Shown here piece after piece: positions 2,438 through 23,633 of a stretch of DNA of 64,000 bases. Position 1 is the stretch's first letter. Each line of letters opens with the position of its first letter. The notes under the pieces are model-generated. The model searched no databases. It worked only from the letters and a program-made list of their open reading frames with translations, and had not been told where the DNA came from. Where the stretch lies: positions 49,081-113,080 of the forward strand of contig CAZWEM010000009.1 of assembly GCA_964632315.1 (NCBI GenBank). The letters run 5' to 3'. Source of the stretch: an uncultured archaeon. GTDB taxonomy: Archaea; Asgardarchaeota; Lokiarchaeia; Sigyniarchaeales; SOKP01. A program made the position numbers and the translations under genes.

Positions 2438-5167
2438 ATGACTGAATCTGGAGAAATCGCAGATCAAAAAAAGGCTAAGAAAAAGATTTCAACTGAATTG
2501 TTTAGAGATGTAATTAATTCTGTGAATTATTGTTATAGTTGTAATCGATGTAACACTTCTTGTCCTGTTTCATTTTTAGGTACATTTTTTCCAAGAAATC
2601 TAATAACTGATATAAGTTTCTCATCAGTTGAAGAAGCACTAGAGAAAAATAATATTTGGAATTGCTTGACTTGTGGACAATGTGTTGAGTATTGTCCAAT
2701 GTCAAAAGAAGGAACAGGTGTAAATTTTCTTGATCTCATTTTAAACCTTAGAAGTCTCGTTTCTACTTATGAACCCTTGCAACAAGAAATGAAAAGTTGT
2801 CAGCATGATAGAGAATATACCAATATTGCCCAAATGATGGCGAATGATGAAATTGAAGTTAATGATAGGCTTGGATTTCTTAGTAGCACTAATCTAAAAA
2901 TAACAGAAAAAGGTGAGATTGGATACTTCATGGGTTGTACTCCTTATATGACCTCTATTCCTCCTTGTACAGATGCCTGTCCAGCCGGAGTTGATGTTCA
3001 GGGATATGTTGCTTTGATAAAGGAAGGTAAATTTCAAGAAGCTTTAGATTTGATAAGAGAACGAAATCCTTTACCAATCGTATGTGGTAGAGTATGTACC
3101 CATCCCTGTGAAGAAAATTGTAATCGGGAAGAGATCGACAATCCTATTGCAATACGTGCCCTTAAAAGATTCGTCTCAGATTGGGAAATCCAAAATAAAG
3201 GACATTCAAGATTTAAATCTGTTGATCAGAAAAAGGAGAAGGTTGCTATTATTGGTGCAGGACCTGCAGGTTTGTCAGCAGCATTTTATCTGGCATTAAA
3301 AGGCTATAGACCAACAATATTTGAAGAATCGGCTTTTAAAGGAGGTAAATTAAGAAGTGGGATTCCTGAATATCGCTTACCTCAAGAAGTTTTGGATTAT
3401 GAAATTGAGTTTATTGAAAAAATGGGAGTGGAAATAAGGACTAATACACCAATTGGTCCGAACCTGACTTTTAGTGATCTTAAAAAACAAGGTTATAAAG
3501 CGATTTTTATAGGAGTTGGATTAGGTGAAAGTCGTGGTATGGGAATAGAAGGAGAAGATTTAGATGATGTTATTCATGGTTTACAATTTTTAGAAGATGT
3601 AAATATTAATAACAAATCTTACGATTTTAAAGGCAAGGTTATCGGCGTTGTAGGTGGAGGAAATGTAGCCATTGACTCCGCCCGCACTGCTTTAAGATTA
3701 GGTGCTAAAAAAGTAATGGTAATTTACAGGAGATCTGAAAATGAAATGCCTGCTTTAAACGAGGAAGTTGAAGATGCTAAACGTGAAGGCATTGAATTCC
3801 AATTTTTAACTAATCCAATTCATTTGATTAGTGGAGAATCGGGTAGTTGTGAGGAAGCAGAATGCATTCAAATGGAATTAGGTGAACCTGACGCTTCGGG
3901 GAGAAGAAGACCTGTTGAAATCGAAGGTTCTCAATTCAAAATTAAAATAGATGCAATTATCCTCGCAATCGGTCAAATTGCCAATTTTAAACTTATCAAA
4001 GCTGCAGAAGATGAATTAGAGATTGATAAGCGGGGGCATATAAAATATGATAAACAAACTTTAGAAACTAATATTCCAGGAGTCTTTGCTGGAGGAGATA
4101 TATTGGCGCAAAAAGGAATTGCTATCAATGCCATCGCTAATGGATATGAAGTAGCAATATCAATTGATCGATACTTAAGAGGTCAAGATCTAAGAAAAGA
4201 TAGAGTTAATAGAGCTGATTTTAAAATATCCCCAATTCCGAAAAAGAGAATTAATGAAAAAGCGAGAAATAACATGCAAGAATTAAGCATTGAAAAAAGA
4301 GTCAGCTCTTTTGATGAGGTAGAGCAAGGATTAACTGAAGCAATTGCAATCACAGAAGCAAATCGCTGTTTAAACTGTGCAAGTTGCAACAATATCGATC
4401 AGCGTATTAACGATCCCACAGGAAAAGTAAACTACGGTAAAAATCCCACTGTCCCTCTTTATAAAACTCTTGATTATTTAGAAATTCCAAAAACCGTTAT
4501 TGGACTACTCAACCATAAAGAAATAACTCCAGTAGTTTTAAGAGAAGAGAAATGTTGTGGACATGACAGTTTGTGGAAAGGAGATGTAGAAACTTTCGAG
4601 AAGTTAGCAAAACATAATGTAAGAATCTATAAAGAAGCGGGGGTTAAAACCTTAGTTTTTAGTTGCGCGGAAGGATACTATACTTGGAAATATAAATATC
4701 CAGAGCTATTTGAAGATGATTCAGAATTTGATTTTGATATATATCATATTTCAGAATACATTTTAAAAGAAAATTTACTGGATGGTTTAAAATTTCCAGT
4801 TACAAATAAATTAAAAGTAACTTATCATGATGCGTGCCGTTTAGGAAGATTTAGTAAAATTTACGACCAACCAAGAGAAGTAATACAGTCCATACCATTC
4901 GTTCAGCTAATCGAAATGGAGAATATCAGAGAAGATGCCTTATGTTGTGGAGTAAATGCCTATATAAGTTGTAATGAATATTCGAAAACGCTTCAAAGAG
5001 ATAGGATTCTAGAAGCAATAGAAACTGGAGCTGACTACTTAATAGTGAGTTGCCCAAAATGTTTAACTCACTTTAATTGTTACCTAGATGAGCACCCTGA
5101 ATTAAAAGAAAAAATTAAAGTTATTGATCTTACTACTTTTCTAGGAAAATTACTCTTTCTTAATTAA
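2438..5167 (+). CDS. Fusion oxidoreductase: HdrC-like 2x[4Fe-4S] + CCG-domain (HdrD/GlpC-like) protein with an inserted GltD/NfnB-like FAD/NAD(P) module
   Basis: N-terminal CYSCNRCNTSCP and WNCLTCGQCVEYCP. Central PPCTDACPAG..CGRVCTHPCEENC, IIGAGPAG, VVGGGNVAIDSAR, VFAGGD. C-terminal EKCCGH, VTYHDACRLGR, LCCG, SCPKC. Confidence 0.88.
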   Translation: MTESGEIADQKKAKKKISTELFRDVINSVNYCYSCNRCNTSCPVSFLGTFFPRNLITDISFSSVEEALEKNNIWNCLTCGQCVEYCPMSKEGTGVNFLDLILNLRSLVSTYEPLQQEMKSCQHDREYTNIAQMMANDEIEVNDRLGFLSSTNLKITEKGEIGYFMGCTPYMTSIPPCTDACPAGVDVQGYVALIKEGKFQEALDLIRERNPLPIVCGRVCTHPCEENCNREEIDNPIAIRALKRFVSDWEIQNKGHSRFKSVDQKKEKVAIIGAGPAGLSAAFYLALKGYRPTIFEESAFKGGKLRSGIPEYRLPQEVLDYEIEFIEKMGVEIRTNTPIGPNLTFSDLKKQGYKAIFIGVGLGESRGMGIEGEDLDDVIHGLQFLEDVNINNKSYDFKGKVIGVVGGGNVAIDSARTALRLGAKKVMVIYRRSENEMPALNEEVEDAKREGIEFQFLTNPIHLISGESGSCEEAECIQMELGEPDASGRRRPVEIEGSQFKIKIDAIILAIGQIANFKLIKAAEDELEIDKRGHIKYDKQTLETNIPGVFAGGDILAQKGIAINAIANGYEVAISIDRYLRGQDLRKDRVNRADFKISPIPKKRINEKARNNMQELSIEKRVSSFDEVEQGLTEAIAITEANRCLNCASCNNIDQRINDPTGKVNYGKNPTVPLYKTLDYLEIPKTVIGLLNHKEITPVVLREEKCCGHDSLWKGDVETFEKLAKHNVRIYKEAGVKTLVFSCAEGYYTWKYKYPELFEDDSEFDFDIYHISEYILKENLLDGLKFPVTNKLKVTYHDACRLGRFSKIYDQPREVIQSIPFVQLIEMENIREDALCCGVNAYISCNEYSKTLQRDRILEAIETGADYLIVSCPKCLTHFNCYLDEHPELKEKIKVIDLTTFLGKLLFLN

Positions 5168-5316
5168 AGGTTTTATAAATTTCTTGATTAAAAAAATTAT
5201 TTTCTTTTTACAATGCTTTACATTTTTATAATAATCAATTTAAAAATAAGTGCTTAATTTAGATTGCTTGGATATAAACATTTTAATAACAATAATTAAA
5301 ATCACGTTGTTCAAGA

Positions 5317-6201
5317 ATGGCATATAAGATATTAGAGAAAAAAGAACTTGGTAGAAGTGGCATATTAATTGAAATGGTTCTACATACTCCACTGATAGCT
5401 CGAAAAGCACGTGCTGGAAATTTTATCTTATTAAGAATAAATGAAACTGGAGAAAGGTTCCCATTAACTATAGCAGATTATGATAGAATTAAAGGAACGA
5501 TAACCATTGTGTTCCAAGTTGTGGGGAAAAGTACAAAACTTTTATCAAACCAAAACATTGGAGATGAAATCCTTGATGTGGTTGGTCCTTTAGGGAATCC
5601 AATACACATTCAGAAATATGACTATCCCGTAGTTCTTATTGGGGGTGGTGTAGGAATCGCACCTATATATCCTCAAGCCAAAGAATTGAAAGAAGCAGGA
5701 AACACAATAATTTCGATTATGGGCGCTAGAAATACAGATTTATTGTTCTGGCGTGACAAAATGCGAAGCGTGAGTGATCAGTTAATCATATGCACCGATG
5801 ATGGAACTGAAGGCATTAAAGGAGTGGTGACTGAGCCATTAAAAGAAATTATCATACATCAGAAAATAAGTATAGTGATTGCTATCGGACCATTAATAAT
5901 GATGAAATATGTGTCCCTTACCACGGATGGGAAAGGAGATTTACCCAAGGTCAAAACTTATGCATCCTTAAACACTATCATGATTGATGGAACTGGAATG
6001 TGTGGAGGGTGTAGGTTTACCACATTAGATGGTGATGTTTATTATGCGTGTGTAGATGGTCCAGATGTTGATGCTCATGCGGTTGATTTCGATAACTTGT
6101 TAAATCGATCAAGAAGATTCATTGATCTTGAAAAAGAATCCTTGGAGAAATATGATCACGAATGTAAAGCAATGAATAAATTTAAGAGCGAGGTTCAATA
6201 A
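5317..6201 (+). CDS. nfnA: NfnA/SudB-type small subunit (FAD/NAD-binding, [2Fe-2S]) of ferredoxin-dependent transhydrogenase
   Basis: GERFPLTIAD, DVVGPLG, IGGGVGIAP, TDDGT, and IMIDGTGMCGGCR...ACVDGP (Asp/Cys-ligated 2Fe-2S motif). Directly upstream of an NfnB-containing gene (1-nt gap). Confidence 0.88.
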   Translation: MAYKILEKKELGRSGILIEMVLHTPLIARKARAGNFILLRINETGERFPLTIADYDRIKGTITIVFQVVGKSTKLLSNQNIGDEILDVVGPLGNPIHIQKYDYPVVLIGGGVGIAPIYPQAKELKEAGNTIISIMGARNTDLLFWRDKMRSVSDQLIICTDDGTEGIKGVVTEPLKEIIIHQKISIVIAIGPLIMMKYVSLTTDGKGDLPKVKTYASLNTIMIDGTGMCGGCRFTTLDGDVYYACVDGPDVDAHAVDFDNLLNRSRRFIDLEKESLEKYDHECKAMNKFKSEVQ

Positions 6202-6202
6202 G

Positions 6203-8920
6203 ATGGAAATTCAATCCCCTTTAATTAACGTACTAAAAGAAAATGAAAACAAAATCTTAGAGAGAGGAAAATATAATAAAAGTCAGTACGATTTTTTAAT
6301 TCATTCCTTAACTGAGGCAGAAAAGACGAGAATTCTAATACTCGAGAAAATCAAGGAATTAGGAAAGATTGATTATGATAAAATCCAAGCGGATTTAGGA
6401 TTATCAAGTGATATATTAAATATTAGCATCGATTATCTCAGGGAATTAGGATTATTAGCATTTCTTGGTGAACATCCTAGATTCTTCAAAGAAATAATCG
6501 AAAACTCAGACCATCCAGGATTATTTCCAAGTACTAAATTGATAAAAGATAAAAATCTGTGTTGTGGCTGTGGATTATGCGTAGCTATCTGTCCTGTTAA
6601 TGCCATAGATTATTTGGAAGGCACATTTGAAATTGATGAAGAGGTGTGTATGAATTGTGGATTGTGTTTTTCGGCTTGTCCAAGATCTTTTTTTCCAAGC
6701 CAATTAAACAAATTAAATGATGAGGATGTTGAAATCCAATTCACAGATGAATTAAAATATTATCGTCAACTCTGTACAGCCCAAACTACGGAAGATAGGA
6801 TAAGAAATGTTGCCCAAGATGGTGGAATAGTAACAACCATGCTTAAAACTGCATTTAAAGAAGGGTATATTGATGGTACTTTTGCTGTTACCTTAGGAGA
6901 TCAACCATTAAAACCCTTGCCAGTTTTTGTTGAAAATGAGGAAGAACTGCTAAAAACAGCTGGAACAAAATACACCAACGTCCCTTTACTCAAGATATTT
7001 TATGATGCTAAAGATCACAAGCGAATTGCCGTTGTAGGAACACCTTGCATAATGAAAGCTTTAAAAAAGATTTCAATGCTCCCTCTTAATAGGCCTTTCT
7101 TCGATAATATTGCCCTTAAAATCGGTGTTTTTTGCATGGAAAGTTTTGATTATGATAAAATCGTGGAACTATTAAAAAATGAGTTTCACGTTTATCCTTC
7201 AGATATCAAGAAGATGGATATCAATAAAGGTTCATTTATAATTTATGATCAAGAAAGTAATATTTCAAAAATTCCGATTAAAAGAATTAAAAAGTATGGA
7301 AGATTTGGATGCTTTTTCTGTGATGATTTGACTGCAGAACATGCGGATATTTCTGTAGGATCGATAGGCTCAGAACCGGGATGGTCAACTGTCATTATTC
7401 GTACCAAGAAAGGTGCAGATTTTTGTCAGAAAGCTTTTGATATGAATTTGATTAGGAAACAAGAAATTCGAGCAGGTGATAAGAATTTTAAGAGTTTAAG
7501 TAGAATTTCCAAATCTAAACACAAGAGATACATCGAACAACAGAGAGTAAAAATGATTGAACAAGAACCGAGTGAAAGAATCACTAATTTTGAAGAAGTA
7601 CCCCATGGATTAAGTGATGAGATGATGAAACAAGAAGCTCAGAGATGTTTACAATGCGGTTTGCCATTGTGTGTTACTGGATGTCCAGTAAACATTAGAA
7701 TTCCTGAATTTATAAAACTTTTAAGGGAAGGAAAGCAAATTGAAGCACTTTACAAAATAAAATCTAGTAACCTATTACCTGCTATATGTGGGCGAGTATG
7801 TCCACAAGAAGTACAATGCGAAAACTCGTGTTTGCTTGGATCCCTTGGAGAACCAATCGCAATTGGGTATTTAGAACGATATATCGCAGATTGGGAACGT
7901 AAAAACCAATTAAAGGAATGTCCAGAATGTAAACCTCCCAACGGAATTAAAGTTGCAGTGATAGGATCCGGACCTGCTGGATTATCATGTGCAGGAGAAT
8001 TAGCAATGAGAGGTTATGACGTGACAATATTCGAAGCTTTTCATGCCGGTGGAGGAGTTTTATCATATGGAATCCCTGAATTTCGTTTACCGAAAGAGAT
8101 CGTAAAAGAAGAAATTGAAACCCTTAAGATGCTTGATGTAAAAGTAAACTATAATGCAATCATTGGGAAGACATTAACGATTGAGGATCTCAATGAAATG
8201 GGATTTAAAGCTTATTTTATCGGTGTTGGTGCAGGTCTTCCCGCATTTTTAAATATATCCGGGTTAAATCTAAATGGAGTTTTATCAGCCAATGAATTTT
8301 TAACACGATCCAATCTTATGAAAGCATATAGATTTCCCGAATATGATACCCCTATCAAAATTGGAAAAATCGTAACAGTAATCGGTGGAGGAAATGTAGC
8401 TTTAGATTCTGCAAGAACTGCTTTAAGATTAGGTGCTGAAAAAGCTGTAATTGTATATAGAAGATCTGAAGCAGAAATGCCTGCCAGAAGAGAAGAATAT
8501 CATCATGCTGTCGAGGAGGGAGTAGAATTTCAATTTTTAACTAATCCCGTGAGATTTGTTGGAGATGAAAATGGGAACGTGACGAAAATGGAAGTGGTGA
8601 AAATGAGATTAGGAGAACCGGATGATTCAGGGCGTAGACGTCCAATTGCGATTGAAAATTCAGAATACTTCATAAAGACAGACACAATAATAGTCGCAGT
8701 AGGAACAAAAGCAAATCCTGTTCTAACTAAATCGATTCCTGAATTAAATGTGAATAAGTGGGGTTACATCCAAACTAATGAAGATGGGCAGACAAATATC
8801 GAAAATATCTTCGCTGGAGGAGATATTGTCACGGGAAGTGCCACGGTAATATCAGCTATGGGTGCTGGAAAGAAAGCAGCTAAAGCAATAGATGAATATT
8901 TACAAAAAAAAATTAACTGA
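6203..8920 (+). CDS. Fusion: helical/wHTH-like N-terminus + 2x[4Fe-4S] + FrhB/FdhB (F420-binding) domain + NfnB/SudA (GltD-like) large subunit
   Basis: CCGCGLCVAICP and CMNCGLCFSACPR. FrhB motifs AQDGGIVT, GTKYT, VVGTPC, IGVFCMESF, GCFFCDDLTAEHADISVGSIG..GWSTVIIRT. NfnB motifs EAQRCLQC..CVTGCPV, CGRVCPQEVQCE, GSGPAG, EFLTRSNLMKAY, GGDIVTGSATVISAMGAG. Confidence 0.9.
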   Translation: MEIQSPLINVLKENENKILERGKYNKSQYDFLIHSLTEAEKTRILILEKIKELGKIDYDKIQADLGLSSDILNISIDYLRELGLLAFLGEHPRFFKEIIENSDHPGLFPSTKLIKDKNLCCGCGLCVAICPVNAIDYLEGTFEIDEEVCMNCGLCFSACPRSFFPSQLNKLNDEDVEIQFTDELKYYRQLCTAQTTEDRIRNVAQDGGIVTTMLKTAFKEGYIDGTFAVTLGDQPLKPLPVFVENEEELLKTAGTKYTNVPLLKIFYDAKDHKRIAVVGTPCIMKALKKISMLPLNRPFFDNIALKIGVFCMESFDYDKIVELLKNEFHVYPSDIKKMDINKGSFIIYDQESNISKIPIKRIKKYGRFGCFFCDDLTAEHADISVGSIGSEPGWSTVIIRTKKGADFCQKAFDMNLIRKQEIRAGDKNFKSLSRISKSKHKRYIEQQRVKMIEQEPSERITNFEEVPHGLSDEMMKQEAQRCLQCGLPLCVTGCPVNIRIPEFIKLLREGKQIEALYKIKSSNLLPAICGRVCPQEVQCENSCLLGSLGEPIAIGYLERYIADWERKNQLKECPECKPPNGIKVAVIGSGPAGLSCAGELAMRGYDVTIFEAFHAGGGVLSYGIPEFRLPKEIVKEEIETLKMLDVKVNYNAIIGKTLTIEDLNEMGFKAYFIGVGAGLPAFLNISGLNLNGVLSANEFLTRSNLMKAYRFPEYDTPIKIGKIVTVIGGGNVALDSARTALRLGAEKAVIVYRRSEAEMPARREEYHHAVEEGVEFQFLTNPVRFVGDENGNVTKMEVVKMRLGEPDDSGRRRPIAIENSEYFIKTDTIIVAVGTKANPVLTKSIPELNVNKWGYIQTNEDGQTNIENIFAGGDIVTGSATVISAMGAGKKAAKAIDEYLQKKIN

Positions 8921-9034
8921 GAAAGGAATATAGAAGCATTCTTGTGAAATTTCTTTATTTTTTTAGAAAGAAGATTTATCAAAAATAAAGCCCTAACGTT
9001 ACTTGTAATAGTTAATCTTAATGAGAAGTCTCGA

Positions 9035-10156
9035 ATGAAAAAGCATAAACATACTCTTCAGGAAAAAATGGGACCATCACTCGGTACTTCGGTACGAAAT
9101 TGGAGTAAGATGGTGATTTCAAATCGTTCCTTTTCTTTAAGATATTTTCCTAGAATTTTCTTTGTAGATTTTCTTAGTTCTATTGGAATTCCTTTCAGGA
9201 TTTATGAAAGGTGGAGATACGATAAATTAATCGATAAAATTGAGATTAAAAAGGCCCCAATCTTCATATTGGGCCACTGGAGAAGTGGAACTACTCATCT
9301 GCATAATTTATTATGCCAAGATCCTCAATTTGGGTTCGTAACAATGTTAGAAGCAATGTTTCCCAATGCTTTCTTAGAAAATCCTTTATTCAAATTCTTT
9401 ATGCGTGTATTTCTGCCGAAAAAGAGACCCATGGATAACATGGAGATGGGACTTGAAAAAGCTCAAGAGGAAGAGATGGCACTTTCCAACTTATTTCCAT
9501 ATACTTTCTATAATGGTTTTTACTTCCCAAAAAAGCTCAGGGAATTTTATTTCAAATACATAAGATTTGAAAATCTTCCTAAAAAAATACAGGAAAAGTG
9601 GATAGATATCTATAATTACCTCCTGAGAAAGACTACTTGGAACATGCATGGTAAACAGTTAATCTTGAAAAATCCTGCAAATACGGGAAGAATAAAATTT
9701 CTTTTGAAATTGTTCCCAGATGCTAAATTCATACATATTTATAGGAATCCATTTGTCGTCTTTGCATCGACGAAGCGTTTTTATCAGAAAACAGTTGATG
9801 CATTTAAGTTGCAAAGAATTTCTGATGAAGAAATTGAAGGAGATATTCTCTGGATATATAAAAATATGATGAAAACTTATTTTAAAGAGAGAGAGTTGAT
9901 TCCAAAAGAAAATTTAATTGAAGTAAAGTTTGAAGATTTGGAAACACAACCTCTTGTCGAGTTAGAAAAAATATATAAAAATTTGAGAATTGACGGTTTT
10001 AATAAAGCTGTTCCATTATTTTGTTCTTATTTAGATAGTCAGCATAGCTATAAGAAAAATCTTTACAAATTTTCTCGAAGAATGATTGAAAAGGTAAAAT
10101 CATATTGGAGATTCACGATAGACAGATGGAAATATGATTCTCCTGAAAGCGATTAA
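9035..10156 (+). CDS. PAPS-dependent sulfotransferase family protein
   Basis: 5'-PSB loop PIFILGHWRSGTTHLHNLL, LKNP, FPDAKFIHIYRNP (3'-PB), and V-K-F-E-D-L motif. Confidence 0.85.
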   Translation: MKKHKHTLQEKMGPSLGTSVRNWSKMVISNRSFSLRYFPRIFFVDFLSSIGIPFRIYERWRYDKLIDKIEIKKAPIFILGHWRSGTTHLHNLLCQDPQFGFVTMLEAMFPNAFLENPLFKFFMRVFLPKKRPMDNMEMGLEKAQEEEMALSNLFPYTFYNGFYFPKKLREFYFKYIRFENLPKKIQEKWIDIYNYLLRKTTWNMHGKQLILKNPANTGRIKFLLKLFPDAKFIHIYRNPFVVFASTKRFYQKTVDAFKLQRISDEEIEGDILWIYKNMMKTYFKERELIPKENLIEVKFEDLETQPLVELEKIYKNLRIDGFNKAVPLFCSYLDSQHSYKKNLYKFSRRMIEKVKSYWRFTIDRWKYDSPESD

Positions 10157-10322
10157 GCTTTTTTCATTGAAAAAAAGTCAATAAAGACTAAATTTCTATT
10201 CTTCCCTACATAGGTACGTTTAATTTTTTCTATTATTTCCACTTTTGCAGCGCTTAGAGTTTAAAAAGACAAAACTTATACTTTTTACTTCATTTAGTAA
10301 AGATATAGAGAAAAATAGTCTT

Positions 10323-13300
10323 ATGGTTATAAATATTAAAGGTTATACTTGCCCTTTCTGTAGCAACGATTTAGAATCAAAATATTCTAAATGTTTCAAT
10401 ATATATTGCCAAGGCCAAGAATTTAATATAGGAAATTTAATCAATTATAGATTTAACCTTGAATTAGGTATAGGGAGAATAATAGGGAAATTAGAAATTC
10501 CGACCTCTAAATCTCTTGATGAAGAGGATACTCAGTATATTATTAAATATAAAGTCAGATTTGAGAATAATGTCACTAAGATAATCCATCCTATTGACTT
10601 AATTCATCATGTTTTTCAATTGAATGAGCGAGTAGTCACTCGTAATGGAGTTGGAGTTATCAATTCCAATGATTTTCTACTAGAAAATGGAAAGATTTCA
10701 TATGAAGTCCTTTATCCAAATGGGAAACTCGATCAAGTCTCTGAATCTGATACTTTCTCCATTTATCAAGAACCAGTGAAGAAAATTTTAGAACAAAAGA
10801 AACTTGATCCGCCGAGACAATTCCTAATTAAATATTGGGCGAATCTCTTTCATTCATTTTATACTTCGTATCAAATTAAATGTATAACAAACTCTAGACT
10901 TACTTTAATGCCACATCAAATAAATGTCGCTCACCGATTATCAGAGGAATATTTTCCAAGAGTCATTTTAGCAGATGAGGTTGGGCTTGGAAAGACTATT
11001 GAAGCAGGAATATACGTAAAGGAAATGATGGCCAGGAACTTGGCAGAAAGAGTTTTAATCATTGTGCCAGCAACTTTAGTAAGACAATGGCAATTCGAAA
11101 TGGAAAACAAATTCAACATGGAATTTGTAATCTATGATGGACAAAAAATAAAAGAACTCAAAAAAAATGGGAATATTTATAGTCAAGATAAATTAAGAAA
11201 TCCTTTTTTTTACGATAATTGTATTATATGCTCACTTCAATTTGCCAGAAATCCGAAATATGCAGAACTTTTAGGTCAAGTTTCATGGGATATAATCATA
11301 TTTGATGAGGCACATCATTTAAGGAGATATATTACAAATTTATCCACAGGAAATTATAGAGAAACTCTTAATTATAGTTTAGCGAGAAATTTAAGTGATA
11401 GTTGCCAGAGCTTATTATTATTAACTGCCACCCCACTTCAACTTCATTCATTTGAATTATTTTCTTTAATCGAACTAATAAAGGGGGGTACTTTCGAGAA
11501 TTTTTCTGACTTTGAGCATTTTAGGAAAAATCTACCGTTCATAAATTTACTTGTTTTTAACTTGAATAATATAAGTCATCTTAATAATTTTGAAGTAAAA
11601 AACACCATAAAATTATTAAAAAATTTAGGGTATATCAACAAGCGGGATTCCGATATTAAAATACTTGAGCATCTTAATTCAGATGATTACAAATTTGAAC
11701 TCATTAAAAAGGTTGAAAAGGACCATACATTATCAAAATTTCTAATTCGCAATCGTAAAAAGAATGTATTCTTTGATGAATATTTGAATAAAAGAATTGT
11801 CCAAACTATAATGGTACATCCAAAAAACGAAGAACTTGAAATCTATAATGAAATTCGCCTTTATCTTGCAAAAATTTACAATACCTCCGTGAGTAAAACA
11901 AATGTAGGACTCGGATTTGTTATTACAACCTTGCAAAAATTACTTACTAGCTCTAAAATTGCATTTTTAAAGAGCATTGAGAGACGCCTAGATCAAATTG
12001 AGCGCTCGAAGAGCTTAAGTTCCCAAGTTGATGACATTTTTGATGAAGATCCCGAGTTTTTTGAATCTGAATTAGAAGATGAATATTTAGACTCAGAAAT
12101 TTCTTTCAATTCAAATCGGGAAAAAGAACCATTGTTAAACTTAACCAACCAAGAACGAATCTTAAAGCATTTTTATGAGAAATTAATATCAATTCCATAT
12201 GATTCCAAATTAGATGCTCTTTTAAACTTGATGGAATCAATTTATAGAGATAATCCAAAAGAAAAGATATTAGTTTTTACTCAATTCGTCGATACACTTT
12301 TTTATCTACGAGATCTATTATCCAAACAAGGATATTCTACTTATATTTTTTATGGAGGGATGGATAAAGTAGAGAAACAGCATGCTGTGGAAAAATTTAG
12401 GGCAGACGAGGATTTTTCAATTCTACTATCTACAGAAATAGGAGGAGAGGGTCGCAATTTTCAATTCTGTAGGATTCTTATGAATTATGATCTTCCATGG
12501 AACCCCATGAAGTTAGAACAGAGAATAGGACGTTTAGATAGAATTGGTCAGCAATCGAAAGAAATTTTCATTTATAATTTTTTCTTAGAAGGAACTATTG
12601 AAACAGATATAATATTTGCCTTAGATAAACGCATAAACCTATTCGAAGAATCAATTGGACAACTTGAACCGATCATAGGAAACATCGAAAAAGATATGAA
12701 GGATTTAATATTTGCCTCAGAGAAAGAAAAACGTAGAAAATTAAACGAATTCACGCGTAAGCTTGATATGGAAGTAAAAAGGGCTAAAGAAATTGAAGTT
12801 CAATTGGACGATTTAATGATTGATAAGAAATCATTTCAAGTTGATGATTTAGTCACTTCTAGGGATAGTTGCGAAGAAGTGAAGCTTAGTCATAATGAAC
12901 TTTATTTATTGATAAAATATTTCTTCAACTTGGAAGAAGGAAAATATGGATTCTTTATTCCCGAAAAAGAAAATACAGTGAATAGTGAAGTCACGATTAA
13001 AATCTCGGAGGAATTGCGTAATAATGAACGATTAAGATTGTTTGAGGAATATTCTGGCACATTTGGATTGAATCTTGCGCGTGAAATGGAAGAGATCGAT
13101 TTTTTTGCCTTAGGTCATCCTCTCATTACGAATTTAATTGAATACTGTGAATCTAGGGCTTTCAATGGCTTATATACAATTTTATTTTTGAAGAAAAATG
13201 CACTTCCCTCAAGATTGGTAAATAAGATAAACCAGTCCAATACATTTTATCTCTTTATTTTTAGCATAAAGTTTCAAGGATATATCATTGAAAATCAATA

Positions 13301-13883
13301 CAATGCCATTATTATTGATAAAAATGGTAATGAGATTGAACATTTGGCTGAATTTTGTTTAGATATAGGACAATATGACAAAATTTTTGATTTTACCAAT
13401 TCAACTCCTAAAAATATAGAAGTAGATTCTCAAAAAATTGATACTTTAAGAGATCATGCTAAAAAAATCCTTAAAAGGAAAACCTCCGCATGGAAAAAGG
13501 AAATTAAGCGATTGAACGATAAAATTTTTGAGATTGAAAGATCTAAAAAAGAGAAAATTCACCTAAATAAGAAACGATTGCTTAAATACAAAAAAGAAAT
13601 TCTTTTTATAAAACTAGAGAGAAAAGAACGTCAAAGACCTACGAAACGTCAGATGCGAAATATCTATGATTTGACTGACAAGAAGAAGCAAGAAGAGAAA
13701 TTAGATAATATTAACTCTTTAGAGGAAGAAATTAAGTTCATTAAAAAGGATATTGAAATTGTTGAGAGAAAATTGGATGATTTAGAGTTTCAATTCGAAG
13801 ATGCGAAAAAGGACTTAAAAAAGCAAAATTTGGCGAAATTCTATACGAATATTAGTTCGTTCGCTATTATTAAGGTGCTTTAA
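10323..13883 (+). CDS. SNF2-family (RapA/HepA-like) ATPase with N-terminal Zn-ribbon and C-terminal coiled coil
   Basis: LMPHQ, ILADEVGLGKT, DEAHH, LLTATP, STEIGGEGRNFQ, YDLPWNPMKLEQRIGRLDRIGQ. N-terminal CPFC..C..YC. ATG at 10323 preferred over the track's TTG at 10245. Confidence 0.88.
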   Translation: MVINIKGYTCPFCSNDLESKYSKCFNIYCQGQEFNIGNLINYRFNLELGIGRIIGKLEIPTSKSLDEEDTQYIIKYKVRFENNVTKIIHPIDLIHHVFQLNERVVTRNGVGVINSNDFLLENGKISYEVLYPNGKLDQVSESDTFSIYQEPVKKILEQKKLDPPRQFLIKYWANLFHSFYTSYQIKCITNSRLTLMPHQINVAHRLSEEYFPRVILADEVGLGKTIEAGIYVKEMMARNLAERVLIIVPATLVRQWQFEMENKFNMEFVIYDGQKIKELKKNGNIYSQDKLRNPFFYDNCIICSLQFARNPKYAELLGQVSWDIIIFDEAHHLRRYITNLSTGNYRETLNYSLARNLSDSCQSLLLLTATPLQLHSFELFSLIELIKGGTFENFSDFEHFRKNLPFINLLVFNLNNISHLNNFEVKNTIKLLKNLGYINKRDSDIKILEHLNSDDYKFELIKKVEKDHTLSKFLIRNRKKNVFFDEYLNKRIVQTIMVHPKNEELEIYNEIRLYLAKIYNTSVSKTNVGLGFVITTLQKLLTSSKIAFLKSIERRLDQIERSKSLSSQVDDIFDEDPEFFESELEDEYLDSEISFNSNREKEPLLNLTNQERILKHFYEKLISIPYDSKLDALLNLMESIYRDNPKEKILVFTQFVDTLFYLRDLLSKQGYSTYIFYGGMDKVEKQHAVEKFRADEDFSILLSTEIGGEGRNFQFCRILMNYDLPWNPMKLEQRIGRLDRIGQQSKEIFIYNFFLEGTIETDIIFALDKRINLFEESIGQLEPIIGNIEKDMKDLIFASEKEKRRKLNEFTRKLDMEVKRAKEIEVQLDDLMIDKKSFQVDDLVTSRDSCEEVKLSHNELYLLIKYFFNLEEGKYGFFIPEKENTVNSEVTIKISEELRNNERLRLFEEYSGTFGLNLAREMEEIDFFALGHPLITNLIEYCESRAFNGLYTILFLKKNALPSRLVNKINQSNTFYLFIFSIKFQGYIIENQYNAIIIDKNGNEIEHLAEFCLDIGQYDKIFDFTNSTPKNIEVDSQKIDTLRDHAKKILKRKTSAWKKEIKRLNDKIFEIERSKKEKIHLNKKRLLKYKKEILFIKLERKERQRPTKRQMRNIYDLTDKKKQEEKLDNINSLEEEIKFIKKDIEIVERKLDDLEFQFEDAKKDLKKQNLAKFYTNISSFAIIKVL

Positions 13884-18320: not shown

Positions 18321-21300
18321 TCAATCTAAATAGAGAGAGTATCTCTGACTTTGTGGAATAATCAACTCATATGCGATAAGAGATTCTATTGCAATGATCA
18401 AGCTGTCTTCATCTACATTTTGCAAAAGAGAAGTGAATAAATCATTTAAATAGAATTGCTTATTGTACTTTGATTGTGATTCAAGAACATTCAAGACTCG
18501 TAGCTCTAAATTCGATAAATCTCCCGAAAGTTTTAATGAATGATATTTTTCATTTTTATTAAGAGTGAACGATCCTTTATAATAAAATGCGAGGTGGCGA
18601 TCAATTACTTCTTCGAATGGTTTCTTTAAAGCCTTTATATTTCCAATAAATCCTATGATGAGATCCTCACATTCTGAATACAGATCCCTTGCGAGGTGTT
18701 CAATTTCTTGTCTTAATTGTTCAGAACTCTTTTCTCTGAGAAGTAAGATTAACCGAATTTGCTCATGATCGCAAATCAAGGAATGGAAAAAGTTAAAGTC
18801 TAATTCTTTTAATTCATTACCAGTTTCTATCAACTGATCTTTAGATTCTAATTTCACACCCTCCTTAGTATATTGTTTTCCTAAAATAGTAATTGCTTGA
18901 ATAAAACCTGAAAATCCTGTGATGTAATCCTCATCCAAAATTGAAAAGGTTCTACTGTATAGGGTCATTCCACTTATTTTACTACTGATAATAAGTGCTT
19001 CAATATTTCTTATATCTTTATATCCTTGAGTCTTCTCTGCGATTAATTGCCGTTTTCTCCTTTTCCTTGGAAGAATGACATAAGATCTCACACTTAAAGT
19101 TCCTAGAATCCCAACAATTGCGATAAGACCTATAACTGTTATTAATAAAATATAATTCGGAGTCGGTTTTTCAGTAATTATAATTAAAAAGGAATCTTCA
19201 GTAGTTTTGTAAATGTTTTGTTTTGGTGTAATAACTAAATTGAAGCGATGAGTACCTATCTCTGTTTGCGAACCAAGATCCAGCTTATACGTACCAGAAT
19301 CGATATATTCAAAGTAGTATGTACCAAATTCCCAATAACAATATACAGTGGCATTCTCTATAGGAATATTAGAATTTATTTCTGTAAGATTAATCAAAAT
19401 GGATATTTTATCCCCTGATTGTACGTTTAAAGAGTCTGTAAAGTCAATTCTTTGTACATGTATTGGGATTTGATTTACTTGGATTTGAAACGAAAATGTA
19501 GTAGTAGTATAATTAGTAAGTTCAAATTTGACATAAACATAGTTAATTCCTAAAGAAAAAGTATTAGTAAGGATGCTAATACTTTCATTATACCAATAAT
19601 AATCTCTCTCTGGAAGAATAAATTCCTGAGTATTAACAATAAATTTTGCAGTAGCACCAGACAAATAAATGGCTTCTTTTTCAGCTAATCCTCTACAAGA
19701 TAACGTAATCAAATCATTAAAGTACTTATTTTCTATTAAATCATTCTCTTGAATATTATTGCCATCGAAATTTACCTCTAAAACTACATTTTGGGTACGA
19801 ATATAAAACTGGAATGAGAAAATTATAGTAGAGTAATTAACATGTTCAAATTTGATATAAGCATAATTGATTCCTACAATGAAAAAGTTTGGAGCTATGT
19901 TGAATGTTCTATTATACCAGTAGTTGGATGTTTCTGAGATATTTAACTCATTAGTTCCAATAGTAAATTTAACTATTCCTCCCGATAGATAAATAGCCTC
20001 ATCTTCAGCAAATGCTCGACAAGATATAGAAATAGATTCATCGTAGAATGCTTCTAACAAATAGTTCTCTGCAATATTTTGATCATCAACTTTCACATCT
20101 AATAGTATGTCTTGAGAACGGACGAATATCTGAAATGAAAATGTAGTCGTAGAATAATTAGAAAGCTCAAATTTAACATAAGCATAATTTATCCCGAGAG
20201 AGAAATTATCAGAAGAAATTCTGATCGACGTATTATACCAGTAAATAGGATCTTCTACCAAACTAAATTCATTTCCCTCTGTTATGAATTTAACATTACC
20301 ACCAGTCAGATAAATCATTTCATCTTCAGCAAACGCTCTACATGACAAGGAAATTAATTCATTGGAATATACTTCTTGTAAATAATTCTCAGGAATAGAG
20401 ACATCATTAATTTTAACATCCATAATTATATTTTGAGAACGGACATAAATCTGAAATGAAAATGTAGTTGTAGAATAATTAGAAAGTTCAAATTTAACAT
20501 AAACATTATTAATTCCGAGCGAGAAATTATCAGAAGAAATTCTGATTGATATATTATACCAATAATTAGATTCTTCTACTAAATCAAATTCATCTCCCTC
20601 CGTTATGAATTTAACACTACCACCAGTCAGATAAATCATTTCATCTTCAGCAAACGCTCTACAAGATATGGAGATTAATTGGTTTGTATATACTTCTTGT
20701 AAATAATTCTCAGGAATAGATACGTCATTAATTTTAACATCTAAAAAAATTTCTTGAGCTCGAATAAAAAATTGAAATGAAAAGATAGAAGTTGTATAAT
20801 TTTGTTTTTCATATCTTAGAAAGATAGAATTGAGACCGGAACTGAAATTTTCCCCGTTTATATTGAATTTTAGACTAAAAAATGTCGGTTGTGTTTCGAC
20901 TAAAATATTTTGATAGTTATCACTTAAAATAGTTAAAACTCCTCCTGATAAATAAGCACCTTCCGGTTCAGCGAAGATCCTAGCTGTTAAATTTATATTT
21001 TCTTTAAAAAATAACTCAACAAGACTATTTTGAGTTATATCAATACTATTAATACTAACTGACATGTTAGTCTCTTGCTCATTGATAACCGTTGTAATAC
21101 TCACTAACGCATCCTCATACCCGGGCTTAGTTATTCTGATTAGACTATTGTATACATCAATGTTTAAACCGGTTGTGTAATATGTGATTTTGAATCCATC
21201 TGATACATCATTAATTTCATAGTAACCTTCCCACGAGACCGTACATGATCCCCCACTAATTAGTTCACCACTGCTTGTATCTGTATAATTTACCTCTACT

Positions 21301-23633
21301 TCAAAGTGTTCGTTAATATAGGTTACTACATTTGTGGTATTCACACATGCTAATGTACTAATTGGATGAATAATGAGCGTGATATAGTCCGTAACACTTC
21401 CAAAACCGGTTTTATTAGCAAATATTTCAATTTCAAAAGCCTCAATAACTCCTCCTATTGGAAGACCACTCGTCGAAAAATTTAACCTATATGTCCCGTT
21501 ACCATAATCAAAAATACTGTAACCATTATCCCAATCGGTACTGACATTTGCATCTGGTATAGGTGTTTTTGAAATCTCACCATTAACAGTTACCTCACAA
21601 ATTGAATAATTATTACTTAAAGCATTAAGAACTCTCGATGAAAAGTCTAATGTTAAAGGTTGCTCGATGATATTTAGTTGAATCAAATTTACTTCCGTTG
21701 TATTCTCATAGAATATTTTTGACGCATTAAATGAAAAATAGTATTCTCCAATTCCTACTCCACTCGTATCAATATCAGCAACATAAATTCCCGAACCAAA
21801 ATATACCATTGTTCCAGAAAATCCAAGAGTAGAATTATAGGAAATAGTTGCAAAATCGATGTAGGTATCGAGATCGTAATCAGTATAATTTAGTTTTATC
21901 AAAAGCGGTTCTCCAGAAACTCTTTCGATGAATGGTTCTACAGGAGTTAAGTTTGTGTGATGCCATAGGCTAAAATTAAACTGTAAATAACCAATTTTGT
22001 CTCGATATACATAAGATTGGTTGTTTGTCCAGAGTAAAATAACACTATAACTACCTACTGGCATATTTTTTCCAACAATAAAACTCCCAAATTCAATATA
22101 ATGAGATGTTAATTGCTCACTGCTTTGATGAAAGAGAGAACCATTTGGATATTCGATAGAGCAATTTATAAATGTGTTTTGATAAGGAACCGAACCATCT
22201 AAGGATACATTAATCTGAAAAGTATCTCCTAAGGTTACACTCGATTTTATTTCAAAAACTGTTCCATTATACACGTTCAAACTTCCTTCCGAGATATAAT
22301 TTTGACTTAATGCCTTTATGATCCACAATCCTGAGCTTAAAACACCTTGTGGAATTATTAATGTCCCAGAGCCGGGATCATATCCTGTACAACTATCTCT
22401 TTGCTCTGAATTGTATTCATCCAAAATAGATGTGATATTCCAGTCGCTAGGCTTCATTATTTTTGCCCAGTTATTAGAATATCCATAAGGAATCATGAAA
22501 GAGCATTCAGTTTGCCAAATAATTTGATTGCTCGTTGTATATTCAGAACTTTCTATTCCGTTCACGGTTGAGTTTAAACTTTTTAAAGCATCAGACATAA
22601 TTGTAATATTATAGACGTATAAATCTTCAATATAGACGGGATTTTTCGAAATTGTGAATTTCACACTACTGGTTTCAGTTCTACTTCTCTCCACATCGAT
22701 AAAAGTTTTACCTTTTCCAAACGTGCTATTTTCATAATAGTAATTTTGATCAAATTCAACATCCTTAGCGATTATCAAATTTGGTTCGTTAGGTTTTGTC
22801 CAAAACGTAAATTGAACATCATCAATATATAAAGTTTGAACTCGATTTGGAGTACTTGTTGCATCATCAACATGCACTCCAACTCGTAATGTAGCATTTT
22901 CCGGGATAATTTGACCGACTTCTGAAATGTCATAGGTCATACTAATAGTATTCCAATTTGCTACATTGGGGACTAAATTGGAAAAACTTACTGAAATATT
23001 CTTTTCAATACCTCCAATAGTAATAGAAATAAAAGCACTAATAGTAGTTGAAGGTGGTGCTGGATTTGGGAGATCATACTTATAATTCATAGACAAGGAC
23101 GCAATTGTGTTTGATGTTGATATTTCAGGAATGGTAAGATTTTCTTCAAAATAGCCGTAATCTCCTTTAGAAAGTGATTGTAAGGCATTAACTTCAATCG
23201 AAGCATATTCGGGTTGCCAATCTCCTTTAACAATTTTACTCGGATTGGAACTTTCATATTCCCATGGGTTTTCTCCATCATCAAAAGTACCATTTATGAC
23301 CCAATCCTTATAATGGGTAACTTCATCATAATTAATTGTTACATTTTTAGAAGTCCAACCTTCTAATAAGGTGAAACTCACATTTGTGGGTAGGCTTAGG
23401 GGGAAATAAGTATTTGAAATTGTCGTATGCTGAGTGATTAATAAAGGTCTTCCCTTAGGATCTTGGTTAGCAGTTTTTAATCTTGAATCTGATTCAGTAT
23501 CTTTATTTCTTAAATTGTAATTATTATTAGAATCATAATTAATGGAGTTATGCAACTTAATGTTTCCTAAGAGAACTAAGAGGAACATTAAAAGAATTGC
23601 CACTTTCCCTTTTTTATGATTCAGAATTTTCAA
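18321..23633 (-). CDS. Giant single-pass surface glycoprotein-like protein (paralog A): signal/anchor, beta-rich ectodomain, 5x ~107-aa repeats, TM helix, ~245-aa cytoplasmic domain
   Basis: N-terminal hydrophobic stretch, many N-x-S/T sequons, TM YILLITVIGLIAIVGILGTL followed by PRKRRKR, then tail DIRNIEALIISSKISGMTLY..GFSGFIQAI. Confidence 0.85.
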   Translation of the reverse strand: MKILNHKKGKVAILLMFLLVLLGNIKLHNSINYDSNNNYNLRNKDTESDSRLKTANQDPKGRPLLITQHTTISNTYFPLSLPTNVSFTLLEGWTSKNVTINYDEVTHYKDWVINGTFDDGENPWEYESSNPSKIVKGDWQPEYASIEVNALQSLSKGDYGYFEENLTIPEISTSNTIASLSMNYKYDLPNPAPPSTTISAFISITIGGIEKNISVSFSNLVPNVANWNTISMTYDISEVGQIIPENATLRVGVHVDDATSTPNRVQTLYIDDVQFTFWTKPNEPNLIIAKDVEFDQNYYYENSTFGKGKTFIDVERSRTETSSVKFTISKNPVYIEDLYVYNITIMSDALKSLNSTVNGIESSEYTTSNQIIWQTECSFMIPYGYSNNWAKIMKPSDWNITSILDEYNSEQRDSCTGYDPGSGTLIIPQGVLSSGLWIIKALSQNYISEGSLNVYNGTVFEIKSSVTLGDTFQINVSLDGSVPYQNTFINCSIEYPNGSLFHQSSEQLTSHYIEFGSFIVGKNMPVGSYSVILLWTNNQSYVYRDKIGYLQFNFSLWHHTNLTPVEPFIERVSGEPLLIKLNYTDYDLDTYIDFATISYNSTLGFSGTMVYFGSGIYVADIDTSGVGIGEYYFSFNASKIFYENTTEVNLIQLNIIEQPLTLDFSSRVLNALSNNYSICEVTVNGEISKTPIPDANVSTDWDNGYSIFDYGNGTYRLNFSTSGLPIGGVIEAFEIEIFANKTGFGSVTDYITLIIHPISTLACVNTTNVVTYINEHFEVEVNYTDTSSGELISGGSCTVSWEGYYEINDVSDGFKITYYTTGLNIDVYNSLIRITKPGYEDALVSITTVINEQETNMSVSINSIDITQNSLVELFFKENINLTARIFAEPEGAYLSGGVLTILSDNYQNILVETQPTFFSLKFNINGENFSSGLNSIFLRYEKQNYTTSIFSFQFFIRAQEIFLDVKINDVSIPENYLQEVYTNQLISISCRAFAEDEMIYLTGGSVKFITEGDEFDLVEESNYWYNISIRISSDNFSLGINNVYVKFELSNYSTTTFSFQIYVRSQNIIMDVKINDVSIPENYLQEVYSNELISLSCRAFAEDEMIYLTGGNVKFITEGNEFSLVEDPIYWYNTSIRISSDNFSLGINYAYVKFELSNYSTTTFSFQIFVRSQDILLDVKVDDQNIAENYLLEAFYDESISISCRAFAEDEAIYLSGGIVKFTIGTNELNISETSNYWYNRTFNIAPNFFIVGINYAYIKFEHVNYSTIIFSFQFYIRTQNVVLEVNFDGNNIQENDLIENKYFNDLITLSCRGLAEKEAIYLSGATAKFIVNTQEFILPERDYYWYNESISILTNTFSLGINYVYVKFELTNYTTTTFSFQIQVNQIPIHVQRIDFTDSLNVQSGDKISILINLTEINSNIPIENATVYCYWEFGTYYFEYIDSGTYKLDLGSQTEIGTHRFNLVITPKQNIYKTTEDSFLIIITEKPTPNYILLITVIGLIAIVGILGTLSVRSYVILPRKRRKRQLIAEKTQGYKDIRNIEALIISSKISGMTLYSRTFSILDEDYITGFSGFIQAITILGKQYTKEGVKLESKDQLIETGNELKELDFNFFHSLICDHEQIRLILLLREKSSEQLRQEIEHLARDLYSECEDLIIGFIGNIKALKKPFEEVIDRHLAFYYKGSFTLNKNEKYHSLKLSGDLSNLELRVLNVLESQSKYNKQFYLNDLFTSLLQNVDEDSLIIAIESLIAYELIIPQSQRYSLYLD
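19470..21080 (-). repeat. Five tandem ~321-nt (107-aa) coding repeats in paralog A
   Basis: Motif SCRAFAE.E.IYL.GG...YWYN...LGINY.YVKFE..NY.TT.FSFQ recurs. Near-identical DNA starts at 20112 and 20433 (321-nt offset). Confidence 0.9.

Follow-up and report, generated by a model that had tools for sequence, protein, structure and literature searches.

Can a flavin-based electron-bifurcating enzyme pass its low-potential electron to coenzyme F420 instead of to free ferredoxin? This question is raised by two adjacent genes in a 64,000-nt stretch of DNA (hereafter the window) from an uncultured Loki-type Asgard archaeon (assembly GCA_964632315.1, contig CAZWEM010000009.1). The first gene, nfnA, encodes a small subunit of the NfnAB type, and the second encodes a 905-aa fusion protein in which a 2x[4Fe-4S] ferredoxin domain and an FrhB-family domain precede a complete NfnB. 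The best reading of this pair is that it would encode an NfnAB-type flavin-based electron-bifurcating complex with an N-terminally extended large subunit, and that the third partner of this complex is probably F420 and not free ferredoxin. We estimate at about 0.55 the probability that the low-potential electron of this complex passes via the fused module to F420, in which case the net reaction would be 2 NADPH + NAD+ + F420 <-> 2 NADP+ + NADH + F420H2.

The supply of F420H2 in peptide-fermenting archaea that run the tetrahydromethanopterin (H4MPT) Wood-Ljungdahl pathway is an open point; fermentation is stated to yield no F420H2, and ad hoc complexes of FrhB and Hdr have been proposed (PMC10667645). 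If the activity suggested here is true, the enzyme would connect the pools of NADPH, NADH and F420 in a large Lokiarchaeial family.

Organization of the locus

The two genes, their domains and the presumed signals around them lie on the forward strand as follows, with positions counted from the first letter of the window:

5168-5316, forward strand: AT-rich intergenic stretch 5' of nfnA, presumed from its sequence alone to be the promoter region of a two-gene operon
5317-6201, forward strand: nfnA, NfnA/NfnS-type small subunit of 294 aa (FAD, NAD(H) site, [2Fe-2S]; NF004862, PF10418), with its stop codon TAA at 6199-6201
6190-6194, forward strand: Shine-Dalgarno-like motif GAGGT within the end of nfnA, 8 nt 5' of the fusion ATG
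6203-8920, forward strand: fusion gene, 905 aa, made up of the N-domain, ferredoxin domain, FrhB domain, linker and NfnB (37 full-length orthologs aligned, 58-92% identity)
6203-6517, forward strand: N-terminal helical domain, residues 1-105, helix-turn-helix (HTH)-like in the AlphaFold2 (AF2) model and kept in orthologs
6539-6688, forward strand: 2x[4Fe-4S] ferredoxin domain, residues 113-162 (Fer4_7, Fer4 and Fer4_10 matches)
6776-7468, forward strand: FrhB-family F420-reductase domain (FAD and [4Fe-4S]), with FrhB_N at residues 192-265 (PF04422) and FrhB_C at 273-422 (PF04432)
7469-7576, forward strand: conserved basic linker from FrhB to the NfnB N-terminus, residues 423-458, which is the fusion junction (ortholog alignment, bridging contigs)
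7577-8869, forward strand: NfnB/NfnL module, with Fer4_20 and its two [4Fe-4S] clusters (residues 459-569) and the FAD/NADPH Rossmann domains (583-889)
8950-8964, forward strand: oligo-T run TTTCTTTATTTTTTT, 30 nt past the fusion stop, a plausible archaeal terminator of the nfnA-fusion operon

A single base, G6202, separates the TAA of nfnA from the ATG of the fusion gene, and the GAGGT motif at the end of nfnA suggests translational coupling between the two; taken together, the 1-nt gap, this motif and the oligo-T run suggest a two-gene operon. A preliminary description of this DNA had already read it as nfnA followed, after a 1-nt gap, by a 905-aa protein consisting of a 2x[4Fe-4S] ferredoxin, an FrhB domain and a complete NfnB. 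The coordinates of that architecture proved exact and the Pfam and NCBIfam profiles agree with it, while residues 1-110 turn out to form a further helical domain that the description did not include and that is conserved in the orthologs.

The NfnA and NfnB core

In Nfn enzymes, NADPH reduces the bifurcating FAD of NfnB, from which one electron travels via the [2Fe-2S] cluster and the FAD of NfnA to NAD+ and the other via the two [4Fe-4S] clusters of NfnB to ferredoxin; it is from the clusters of the Fer4_20 domain that ferredoxin normally receives its electrons (structures 4YLF and 5JCA). Both subunits can be recognized at this locus. In NCBIfam and Pfam profile searches, the small subunit matches NF004862 (356 bits) and PF10418, and among solved structures it reaches 300 bits with the P. 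furiosus NfnI small subunit 5jca_S and 247 bits with T. maritima NfnA 4ylf_A. It keeps the DGTGMCGxCR...ACVDGP motif of the C-terminal [2Fe-2S] cluster (D-x4-C-x2-C...C) in the alignment with these structures, where its sequence MIDGTGMCGGCR...ACVDGP lies opposite MVDGTGMCGACR...ACVDGP.

The C-terminal half of the fusion protein is an NfnB by several measures. Fer4_20 (residues 459-569) and Pyr_redox_2 (583-889) are matched with 134 bits each in Pfam, and the protein scores 592 bits against the NCBIfam model TIGR01316, the cut-off of which is 472. Residues 447-901 cover positions 5-460 of the 468 of T. maritima NfnB 4ylf_B with 564 bits and ~60% identity, and the C-half reaches 531 bits with P. 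furiosus NfnI-L 5jca_L; GltD (6s6s_G, ~285 bits) and DPD score far below the NfnB structures. The AF2 model superposes on 5JCA_L with a template modelling (TM) score of 0.83. Cys482, 485, 490, 494, 529, 533, 539 and 543, together with Glu536, Glu540 and the NADPH-type YRR motif (752-754), are invariant in the 37 orthologs. A free-standing large subunit has ~460 aa and docks soluble ferredoxin; the protein found here has 905 aa with a 445-aa N-terminal extension, and the fused module sits on the N-terminus of the Fer4_20 domain of NfnB.

The fused ferredoxin-FrhB module

The Fer4 dicluster at residues 113-162 (Pfam) has Cys120, 123, 126, 130, 149, 152, 155 and 159 invariant in the same orthologs, and it aligns with the ferredoxin domains of 8riu_B, 8rja_E and the F420H2-dependent sulfite reductase Fsr. 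It is followed by FrhB_FdhB_N (PF04422, residues 192-265, 73 bits) and FrhB_FdhB_C (PF04432, residues 273-422, 144 bits), both with near-full profile coverage. The FrhB domain, called complete in the preliminary description, is intact in its cluster cysteines and in its conserved family motifs: the [4Fe-4S] ligands Cys282, 311, 370 and 373 are invariant, as are all 20 cluster cysteines of the fusion protein, and the motifs QDGGIVT, GTKYT, VGTPC, GVFCME, GCFFCDD, ADISVGSIGS and GWSTVIIRT align to 8riu_B, 6qgr_B, 8rja_E and 7npa_A. As regards the F420 pocket, the comparison with the solved FrhB-family structures covers overall motif conservation. Compared with solved structures, residues 111-440 find their best match in 8riu_B, the zeta subunit of a carbon monoxide dehydrogenase (CODH), with 185 bits, followed by M. 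barkeri FrhB 6qgr_B (173 bits), the formylmethanofuran dehydrogenase (Fwd) subunit FwdI 8rja_E (172 bits) and, with 157 bits each, Fsr 7npa_A and M. marburgensis FrhB. Every solved relative of the N-terminal half at E < 1e-14 is an F420 enzyme.

The linker to NfnB is predicted to contain a helix at 427-439, and its residues K439, K441, Q454 and R459 are invariant in the orthologs. At the other end of the protein, the N-terminal domain is modelled as a bundle of six helices with a high confidence (pLDDT 86.8). Residues 1-110 match no Pfam family even at E = 10, save for a chance-level Myb match, and Foldseek returns nothing below E = 1 for this domain in the PDB, with a local HTH resemblance only (Lrp/AsnC, Z-alpha); a tblastn search of the genome from which the window comes gave no paralog of this domain.

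Reality and distribution of the fusion

The fusion is real. A search of 5.8 billion proteins returned >90 clusters of full-length homologs (900-935 aa, 58-92% identity) which, where named, belong to Lokiarchaeota or Promethearchaeota metagenome-assembled genomes and are usually annotated as 'glutamate synthase small chain', a misnomer for this gene. At the DNA level, the junction at 7530-7560, for which the preliminary description had named missing read support as a possible failing, is bridged without gaps by three contigs (X2 rec14, X3 rec21 and X4 rec28) that stem from three sequencing runs of three independent studies, comprising salt-marsh metagenomes and one run without a recorded habitat; other contigs span the boundary between nfnA and the fusion gene. 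The contigs aligned to this stretch are DNA of salt-marsh and marsh metagenomes, and no RNA run was among the runs listed for it. Many independent assemblies share the reading frame of the fusion. The gene nfnA lies directly 5' of the fusion in 11 of 11 orthologous loci and in 9 of 9 larger loci. An assembly chimera or a frameshift at the junction is ruled out by the ~59 genomes described below, by the many metagenome contigs and by the bridging contigs of the three studies.

Across the phylum, 400 genomes were surveyed for open frames of 910-940 aa that contain a match to residues 1-456, with at most four candidates scored per genome. The fusion is conserved in relatives, and in this survey it is confined to the window's own Lokiarchaeial family, where ~59 of 134 genomes, from seven genera, carry it, in some cases in two copies. 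One genome outside the window's own, G175, has a tandem pair, with copies of 906 and 913 aa behind one nfnA (G175:C211, L046:7361-12871, reverse strand). In a library of 1.84 billion representatives clustered at 50% identity, the entire fusion amounts to one cluster plus two fragments, and no other protein spanning both halves occurs among the best 150 matches. Other NfnB fusions in this library carry a ferredoxin, a polyferredoxin or an NfnA part, and in one further type FrhB harbours a nested GltD-like module.

F420 capacity of the genome and its other FrhB proteins

The window's own genome (4.45 Mb, 99.5% complete) has the capacity for F420 that the preliminary description had proposed to look for: above the family cut-offs are cofH (475 bits), cofD (318 bits), two copies of cofE (272 and 185 bits) and the F420-dependent Mtd (363 bits). 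The same genome contains no match above the cut-off for Fno (61 vs. 149.8 bits), for FrhA (152 vs. 392.5 bits) or for Mer, and no second NfnA/NfnB pair. Within the family, cofH is present in 115 of 134 genomes (86%), compared with 0 of 14 genomes in the neighbouring family, where FrhB matches are found in two of the 14, both weak. Genomes with the fusion are not enriched in cofH, their share of ~86% being equal to the family background.

Further FrhB paralogs are found in the own genome (G000), among them two ferredoxin-FrhB proteins of ~500 aa and an FrhB pair adjoining an HdrD-like gene. In loci L002 and L006 (G000:C52:12036-16617), a 501-aa protein with an N-terminal extension, ferredoxin and FrhB is encoded together with a 371-aa FrhB paralog and a 416-aa HdrD-like protein (Fer4_8 and two CCG domains); this cluster is possibly an F420-linked Hdr-type complex. 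Locus L007 (G000:C39:1182-4400, reverse strand) holds an open frame of ~828 aa for an FrhB-family protein in which a complete GltD/NfnB-like module (Fer4_20 and Pyr_redox_2) splits the FrhB_C domain, a second, nested type of FrhB/GltD chimera that is represented in the public library by P0182 (821 aa). In L004:937-2763 (forward strand; G000:C2, ~119.6-121.4 kb), a 608-aa protein joins the F420-reductase module (FrhB_N and FrhB_C) to the other Nfn-type subunit, in the form of an NfnA/PyrK-like C-terminal part (DHODB_Fe-S_bind). Locus L016 (G000:C7:66649-67935, reverse strand) contains a match resembling the large subunit of [NiFe]-hydrogenases, which scores 135 bits with the FrhA model, below the cut-off, and has one in-frame TAA; this match may represent a pseudogene, a pair of genes or a gene with a micro-intron.

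Proposed mechanism

According to the proposed mechanism, NADPH would reduce the bifurcating FAD in the NfnB part by hydride transfer, and from this FAD one electron would pass to the [2Fe-2S] cluster and FAD of NfnA and on to NAD+. The other electron would move through the two [4Fe-4S] clusters of NfnB to the two clusters of the fused ferredoxin, and from there through the [4Fe-4S] cluster of FrhB to the FrhB FAD, which would gather two electrons and reduce F420. The NfnA branch would be needed mechanistically, for the generation of the reactive flavin semiquinone, and not energetically. We infer the electron path, F420 as the substrate, the stoichiometry and the direction from the architecture, conservation, cofactor ligands, F420 capacity and genomic context.

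The NAD(P) couples have a potential of -320 mV and the reduction of methenyl-H4MPT one of about -390 mV, and in the cell the NADPH pool is mostly reduced and the NAD pool mostly oxidized. The potential of F420 is about -340 mV (PMC10667645) and, because this is nearly equal to that of NAD(P), the net reaction given above would be reversible; at cellular ratios the formation of F420H2 should be the favoured direction, and the F420 pool could be kept at a potential well under that of NADPH. A strongly reduced F420 pool would aid Mtd in the reduction of methenyl-H4MPT, and the role of the enzyme would be to let NADPH from amino-acid oxidation, i.e., from glutamate dehydrogenase, keep F420 in this state for Mtd and the H4MPT Wood-Ljungdahl pathway. 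At somewhat less than an even chance, the complex may be the first flavin-based bifurcating enzyme with three hydride-carrier substrates (NADPH, NAD+ and F420) and no soluble ferredoxin. The coupling of NADPH oxidation to the easily achieved reduction of NAD+ would then be what lowers the potential of the F420 pool, and a peptide-fermenting Asgard archaeon could use NADPH obtained from amino acids to power the F420-dependent step of the H4MPT Wood-Ljungdahl pathway with no need for H2, Frh or Fno.

Alternative explanations and the history of the module

Several results weigh against F420 as the partner that replaces ferredoxin. Five members of the family without the fusion have a plain nfnA-nfnB pair, in which NfnB has 467-480 aa and is 65-74% identical to the C-half of the fusion protein, and no FrhB gene is found near these pairs in the five genomes. 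In a maximum-likelihood tree of the NfnB parts, the unfused genes nest among the fused ones, such that at least two state changes are needed, and 0 of 200 bootstrap trees are compatible with a single state change; the alternative of a monophyletic fused clade with a single origin is rejected by the approximately unbiased (AU) test (p = 0.019). Because both halves and the linker are homologous in all fused proteins, the simplest history, on a tree the root of which is not established, would be a single fusion event with two or more later losses. Given the nested position of the unfused NfnB, the module is an optional add-on and the core enzyme evidently works with or without it, and since sister lineages apparently lost the module, reactivity with ferredoxin may persist. 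On the energetic side, an acceptor at about -340 mV would strip the low-potential branch of much of its driving force, so that energetic bifurcation is unneeded with F420, and both the direction and the role of NfnA are for this reason matters of inference. The FrhB-specific models remain below their cut-offs (NF006807, 252 vs. 269 bits; TIGR03289, 225 vs. 331.5 bits), which makes the domain a member of the family and not an FrhB equivalog, and the genome has no FrhA above cut-off that would go with FrhB proper. The full-length AF2 model has a predicted TM score (pTM) of 0.57, too low for its inter-domain packing to be trusted. Finally, eight of the ~59 fusion-bearing genomes have no cofH match, and four of these eight are at least 90% complete.

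The nesting of plain nfnAB among the fused forms, which indicates that the core is a working Nfn by itself, is what makes one rival serious, although we consider it unlikely. It holds that normal Nfn activity with free ferredoxin is kept and that F420 is a second partner on the low-potential side, or that the module is a ferredoxin:F420 oxidoreductase carried on Nfn, such that the enzyme would equilibrate ferredoxin, F420, NADH and NADPH. In line with this, other NfnB proteins bear just a ferredoxin or polyferredoxin extension at their N-terminus, and a soluble ferredoxin:F420 oxidoreductase activity of the FqoF/FrhB type has been proposed in related archaea (PMC10667645). However, tethering of a domain to the end that faces ferredoxin would probably block access to the docking site. 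Less probable still is a domain that resembles FrhB but makes no use of F420, relaying electrons through its FAD and [4Fe-4S] cluster to another substrate or partner, comparable to ferredoxin-dependent members of the FrhB superfamily. The equivalog scores below cut-off would be in keeping with such a relay, as would the wealth of FrhB paralogs in unusual fusions in the own genome, including the GltD-like module nested in FrhB, and the few fairly complete genomes that have the fusion and no cofH match. Yet the close solved relatives are all F420 enzymes, with no non-F420 member of the family at E < 1e-5, and the motifs common to FrhB, Fsr and the zeta subunit are conserved; moreover, the own genome makes F420 and has Mtd, and cofH, present in 86% of the family, is missing from all 14 genomes of the neighbouring family, where FrhB matches are also rare.

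It has also to be considered that the protein could be a non-bifurcating F420H2:NAD(P)+ oxidoreductase that replaces Fno, which was not found above cut-off in the own genome, with NfnA serving as a second entry for pyridine nucleotides and no obligatory coupling. The standard potentials of F420, NAD and NADP lie within 20 mV of each other, and coupling is thermodynamically unneeded (F420 value from PMC10667645), but NfnB and NfnA share ~60% identity with established bifurcating Nfn enzymes, all ligand sets are kept, including the Glu/Asp positions, and nfnA is retained in every locus; we consider this explanation improbable. The public annotation as 'glutamate synthase small chain' points to yet another one, an electron-input subunit of the glutamate synthase type serving an F420-dependent GltS; a gene with the GltS FMN domain exists elsewhere in the own genome, and glutamate dehydrogenase genes adjoin the fusion in one other genus. 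This GltS core gene, the sole one with a strong Glu_synthase domain, is nevertheless located on a separate contig (C68) and unlinked to the fusion, the partner gene is NfnA, and the similarity to NfnB (564 bits) is far above that to GltD (~285 bits). We regard such a subunit as very improbable, and the same applies to an assembly chimera, which the ~59 genomes, the metagenome contigs and the bridging contigs of three studies contradict.

F420 as the third partner of a bifurcating Nfn continues to be the preferred reading. The preliminary description had proposed that the built-in ferredoxin wires the low-potential branch of Nfn to F420, and this survives in part: the wiring itself has a proven precedent (8RIU, 8RJA; PMC11493965) and is matched by the F420 capacity of the genome, whereas bifurcation is energetically unneeded at ~-340 mV and the module was apparently lost in sister lineages. 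The sequence-based checks on domain profiles, relatives, junction, FrhB cysteines and motifs, and F420 genes all turned out in favour of the proposal.

Neighbourhood of the operon

In the window's own genus, a divergent aldehyde:ferredoxin oxidoreductase (AOR) gene and an Hdr/GltD chimera lie upstream of the nfnA-fusion operon. In the window, the chimera is a 909-aa protein (2438-5167, forward strand) in which an HdrC-like dicluster domain is combined with a flavoprotein module resembling GltD/NfnB and with two CCG domains of the HdrB/D type, and its gene is found upstream of nfnA both in the own genus and in G175. The AOR is of the tungsten type (AFOR_N, AFOR_C; 638 aa) and is encoded at 3-1916 on the reverse strand, where it runs off the window. 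In orthologous loci, a 185-aa 4Fe-4S protein comes after the AOR, and same-genus loci have one or two Kelch-repeat beta-propeller proteins (350-396 aa; L042:4168-5358 and L047:2866-5145, both reverse strand) between the AOR and the Hdr/GltD gene, a position at which they are absent in the window. Downstream of the fusion, a sulfotransferase-family protein (9035-10156, forward strand; Sulfotransfer_3, 124 bits) and a 1212-aa open reading frame (ORF; 10245-13883, forward strand) both recur at this side of the fusion in same-genus loci, and farther along the window there are two very large ORFs on the reverse strand, of 1770 aa (18321-23633) and 1574 aa (23816-28540).

A conserved context unlike that of the window is seen in the three loci of genus g12 (L043:6237-7487, reverse strand; L044:12345-13604, forward strand; L048:3733-7825, reverse strand), in which the fusion is followed on its own strand by between one and three glutamate dehydrogenase genes, with a CitMHS-type transporter nearby. 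The presence of these genes beside the fusion fits amino-acid-derived NADPH as the electron donor.

Comparison with known systems

No paper describing an FrhB-NfnB fusion was found in the full-text literature searched, and an earlier mention is possible, as much of the Asgard literature lies outside it. Nearest to it among published work come the HdrA-NfnB insertions and FrhB paralogs of ANME-1 and the F420-reductase modules of Ethanoperedens, both treated below. The view of the preliminary description that the fusion is not known to be characterized is in agreement with this search, and we regard the protein as a new combination of two well-understood modules. One of its close counterparts is NfnAB itself (4ylf, 5jca), which likewise consists of two adjacent genes, for a small subunit with FAD, an NAD site and the Asp/Cys-ligated [2Fe-2S] motif and for a large subunit with two [4Fe-4S] clusters and a FAD/NADPH site; the likeness extends over nearly the full length (564 and 300 bits, TM 0.83). 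In contrast to NfnAB, the large subunit found here has a 445-residue N-terminal extension (helical domain, 2x[4Fe-4S] and FrhB), and the third substrate is probably F420. Fno, the F420H2:NADP+ oxidoreductase, would also join the F420 and NADP pools, but it is an unrelated, small single-domain enzyme working by direct hydride transfer.

In NfnABC/StnABC and in the polyferredoxin-NfnB fusions (9N5U, 9BOV, 8OH5), an NfnB-like module is likewise part of a larger multi-domain Fe-S protein, but these lack an FrhB domain and their NfnB-like part is more distant (264-340 bits). In ANME-1, a similar modular reshuffling of NfnB-like and FrhB-like units has taken place, with NfnB inserted into HdrA and FrhB paralogs beside Pfor, CODH or Hdr, and with no FrhB-NfnB fusion described (Chadwick, 2022; PMC9012536). 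Fsr (7NP8, 7NPA; 157 bits) has the same single-chain arrangement of an N-terminal ferredoxin and FrhB with a C-terminal catalytic half, except that the catalytic part is here a siroheme sulfite reductase and that Fsr has no partner corresponding to NfnA.

A close parallel in principle is found in Ca. Ethanoperedens thermophilum, where Lemaire (2024) demonstrated by structure and assay that subunits consisting of ferredoxin and F420-reductase parts (8RIU-B, 8RJA-E) route the electrons of CODH and formylmethanofuran dehydrogenase to F420 and not to ferredoxin (PMC11493965). The CODH zeta subunit and FwdI (8RIU, 8RJA) have the same two parts in the same order, the 2x[4Fe-4S] ferredoxin domain first and the F420-reductase domain second, match residues 111-440 with 185 and 172 bits, and follow the same principle, in which F420 is connected to an enzyme whose usual acceptor is ferredoxin. 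They differ in being separate subunits on CODH or Fwd in Halobacteriota, whereas the module described here is covalently fused to a putative bifurcating enzyme in an Asgard archaeon. If the proposed function is true, the exchange of ferredoxin for an FrhB module would extend from CODH and Fwd to a bifurcating flavoenzyme.

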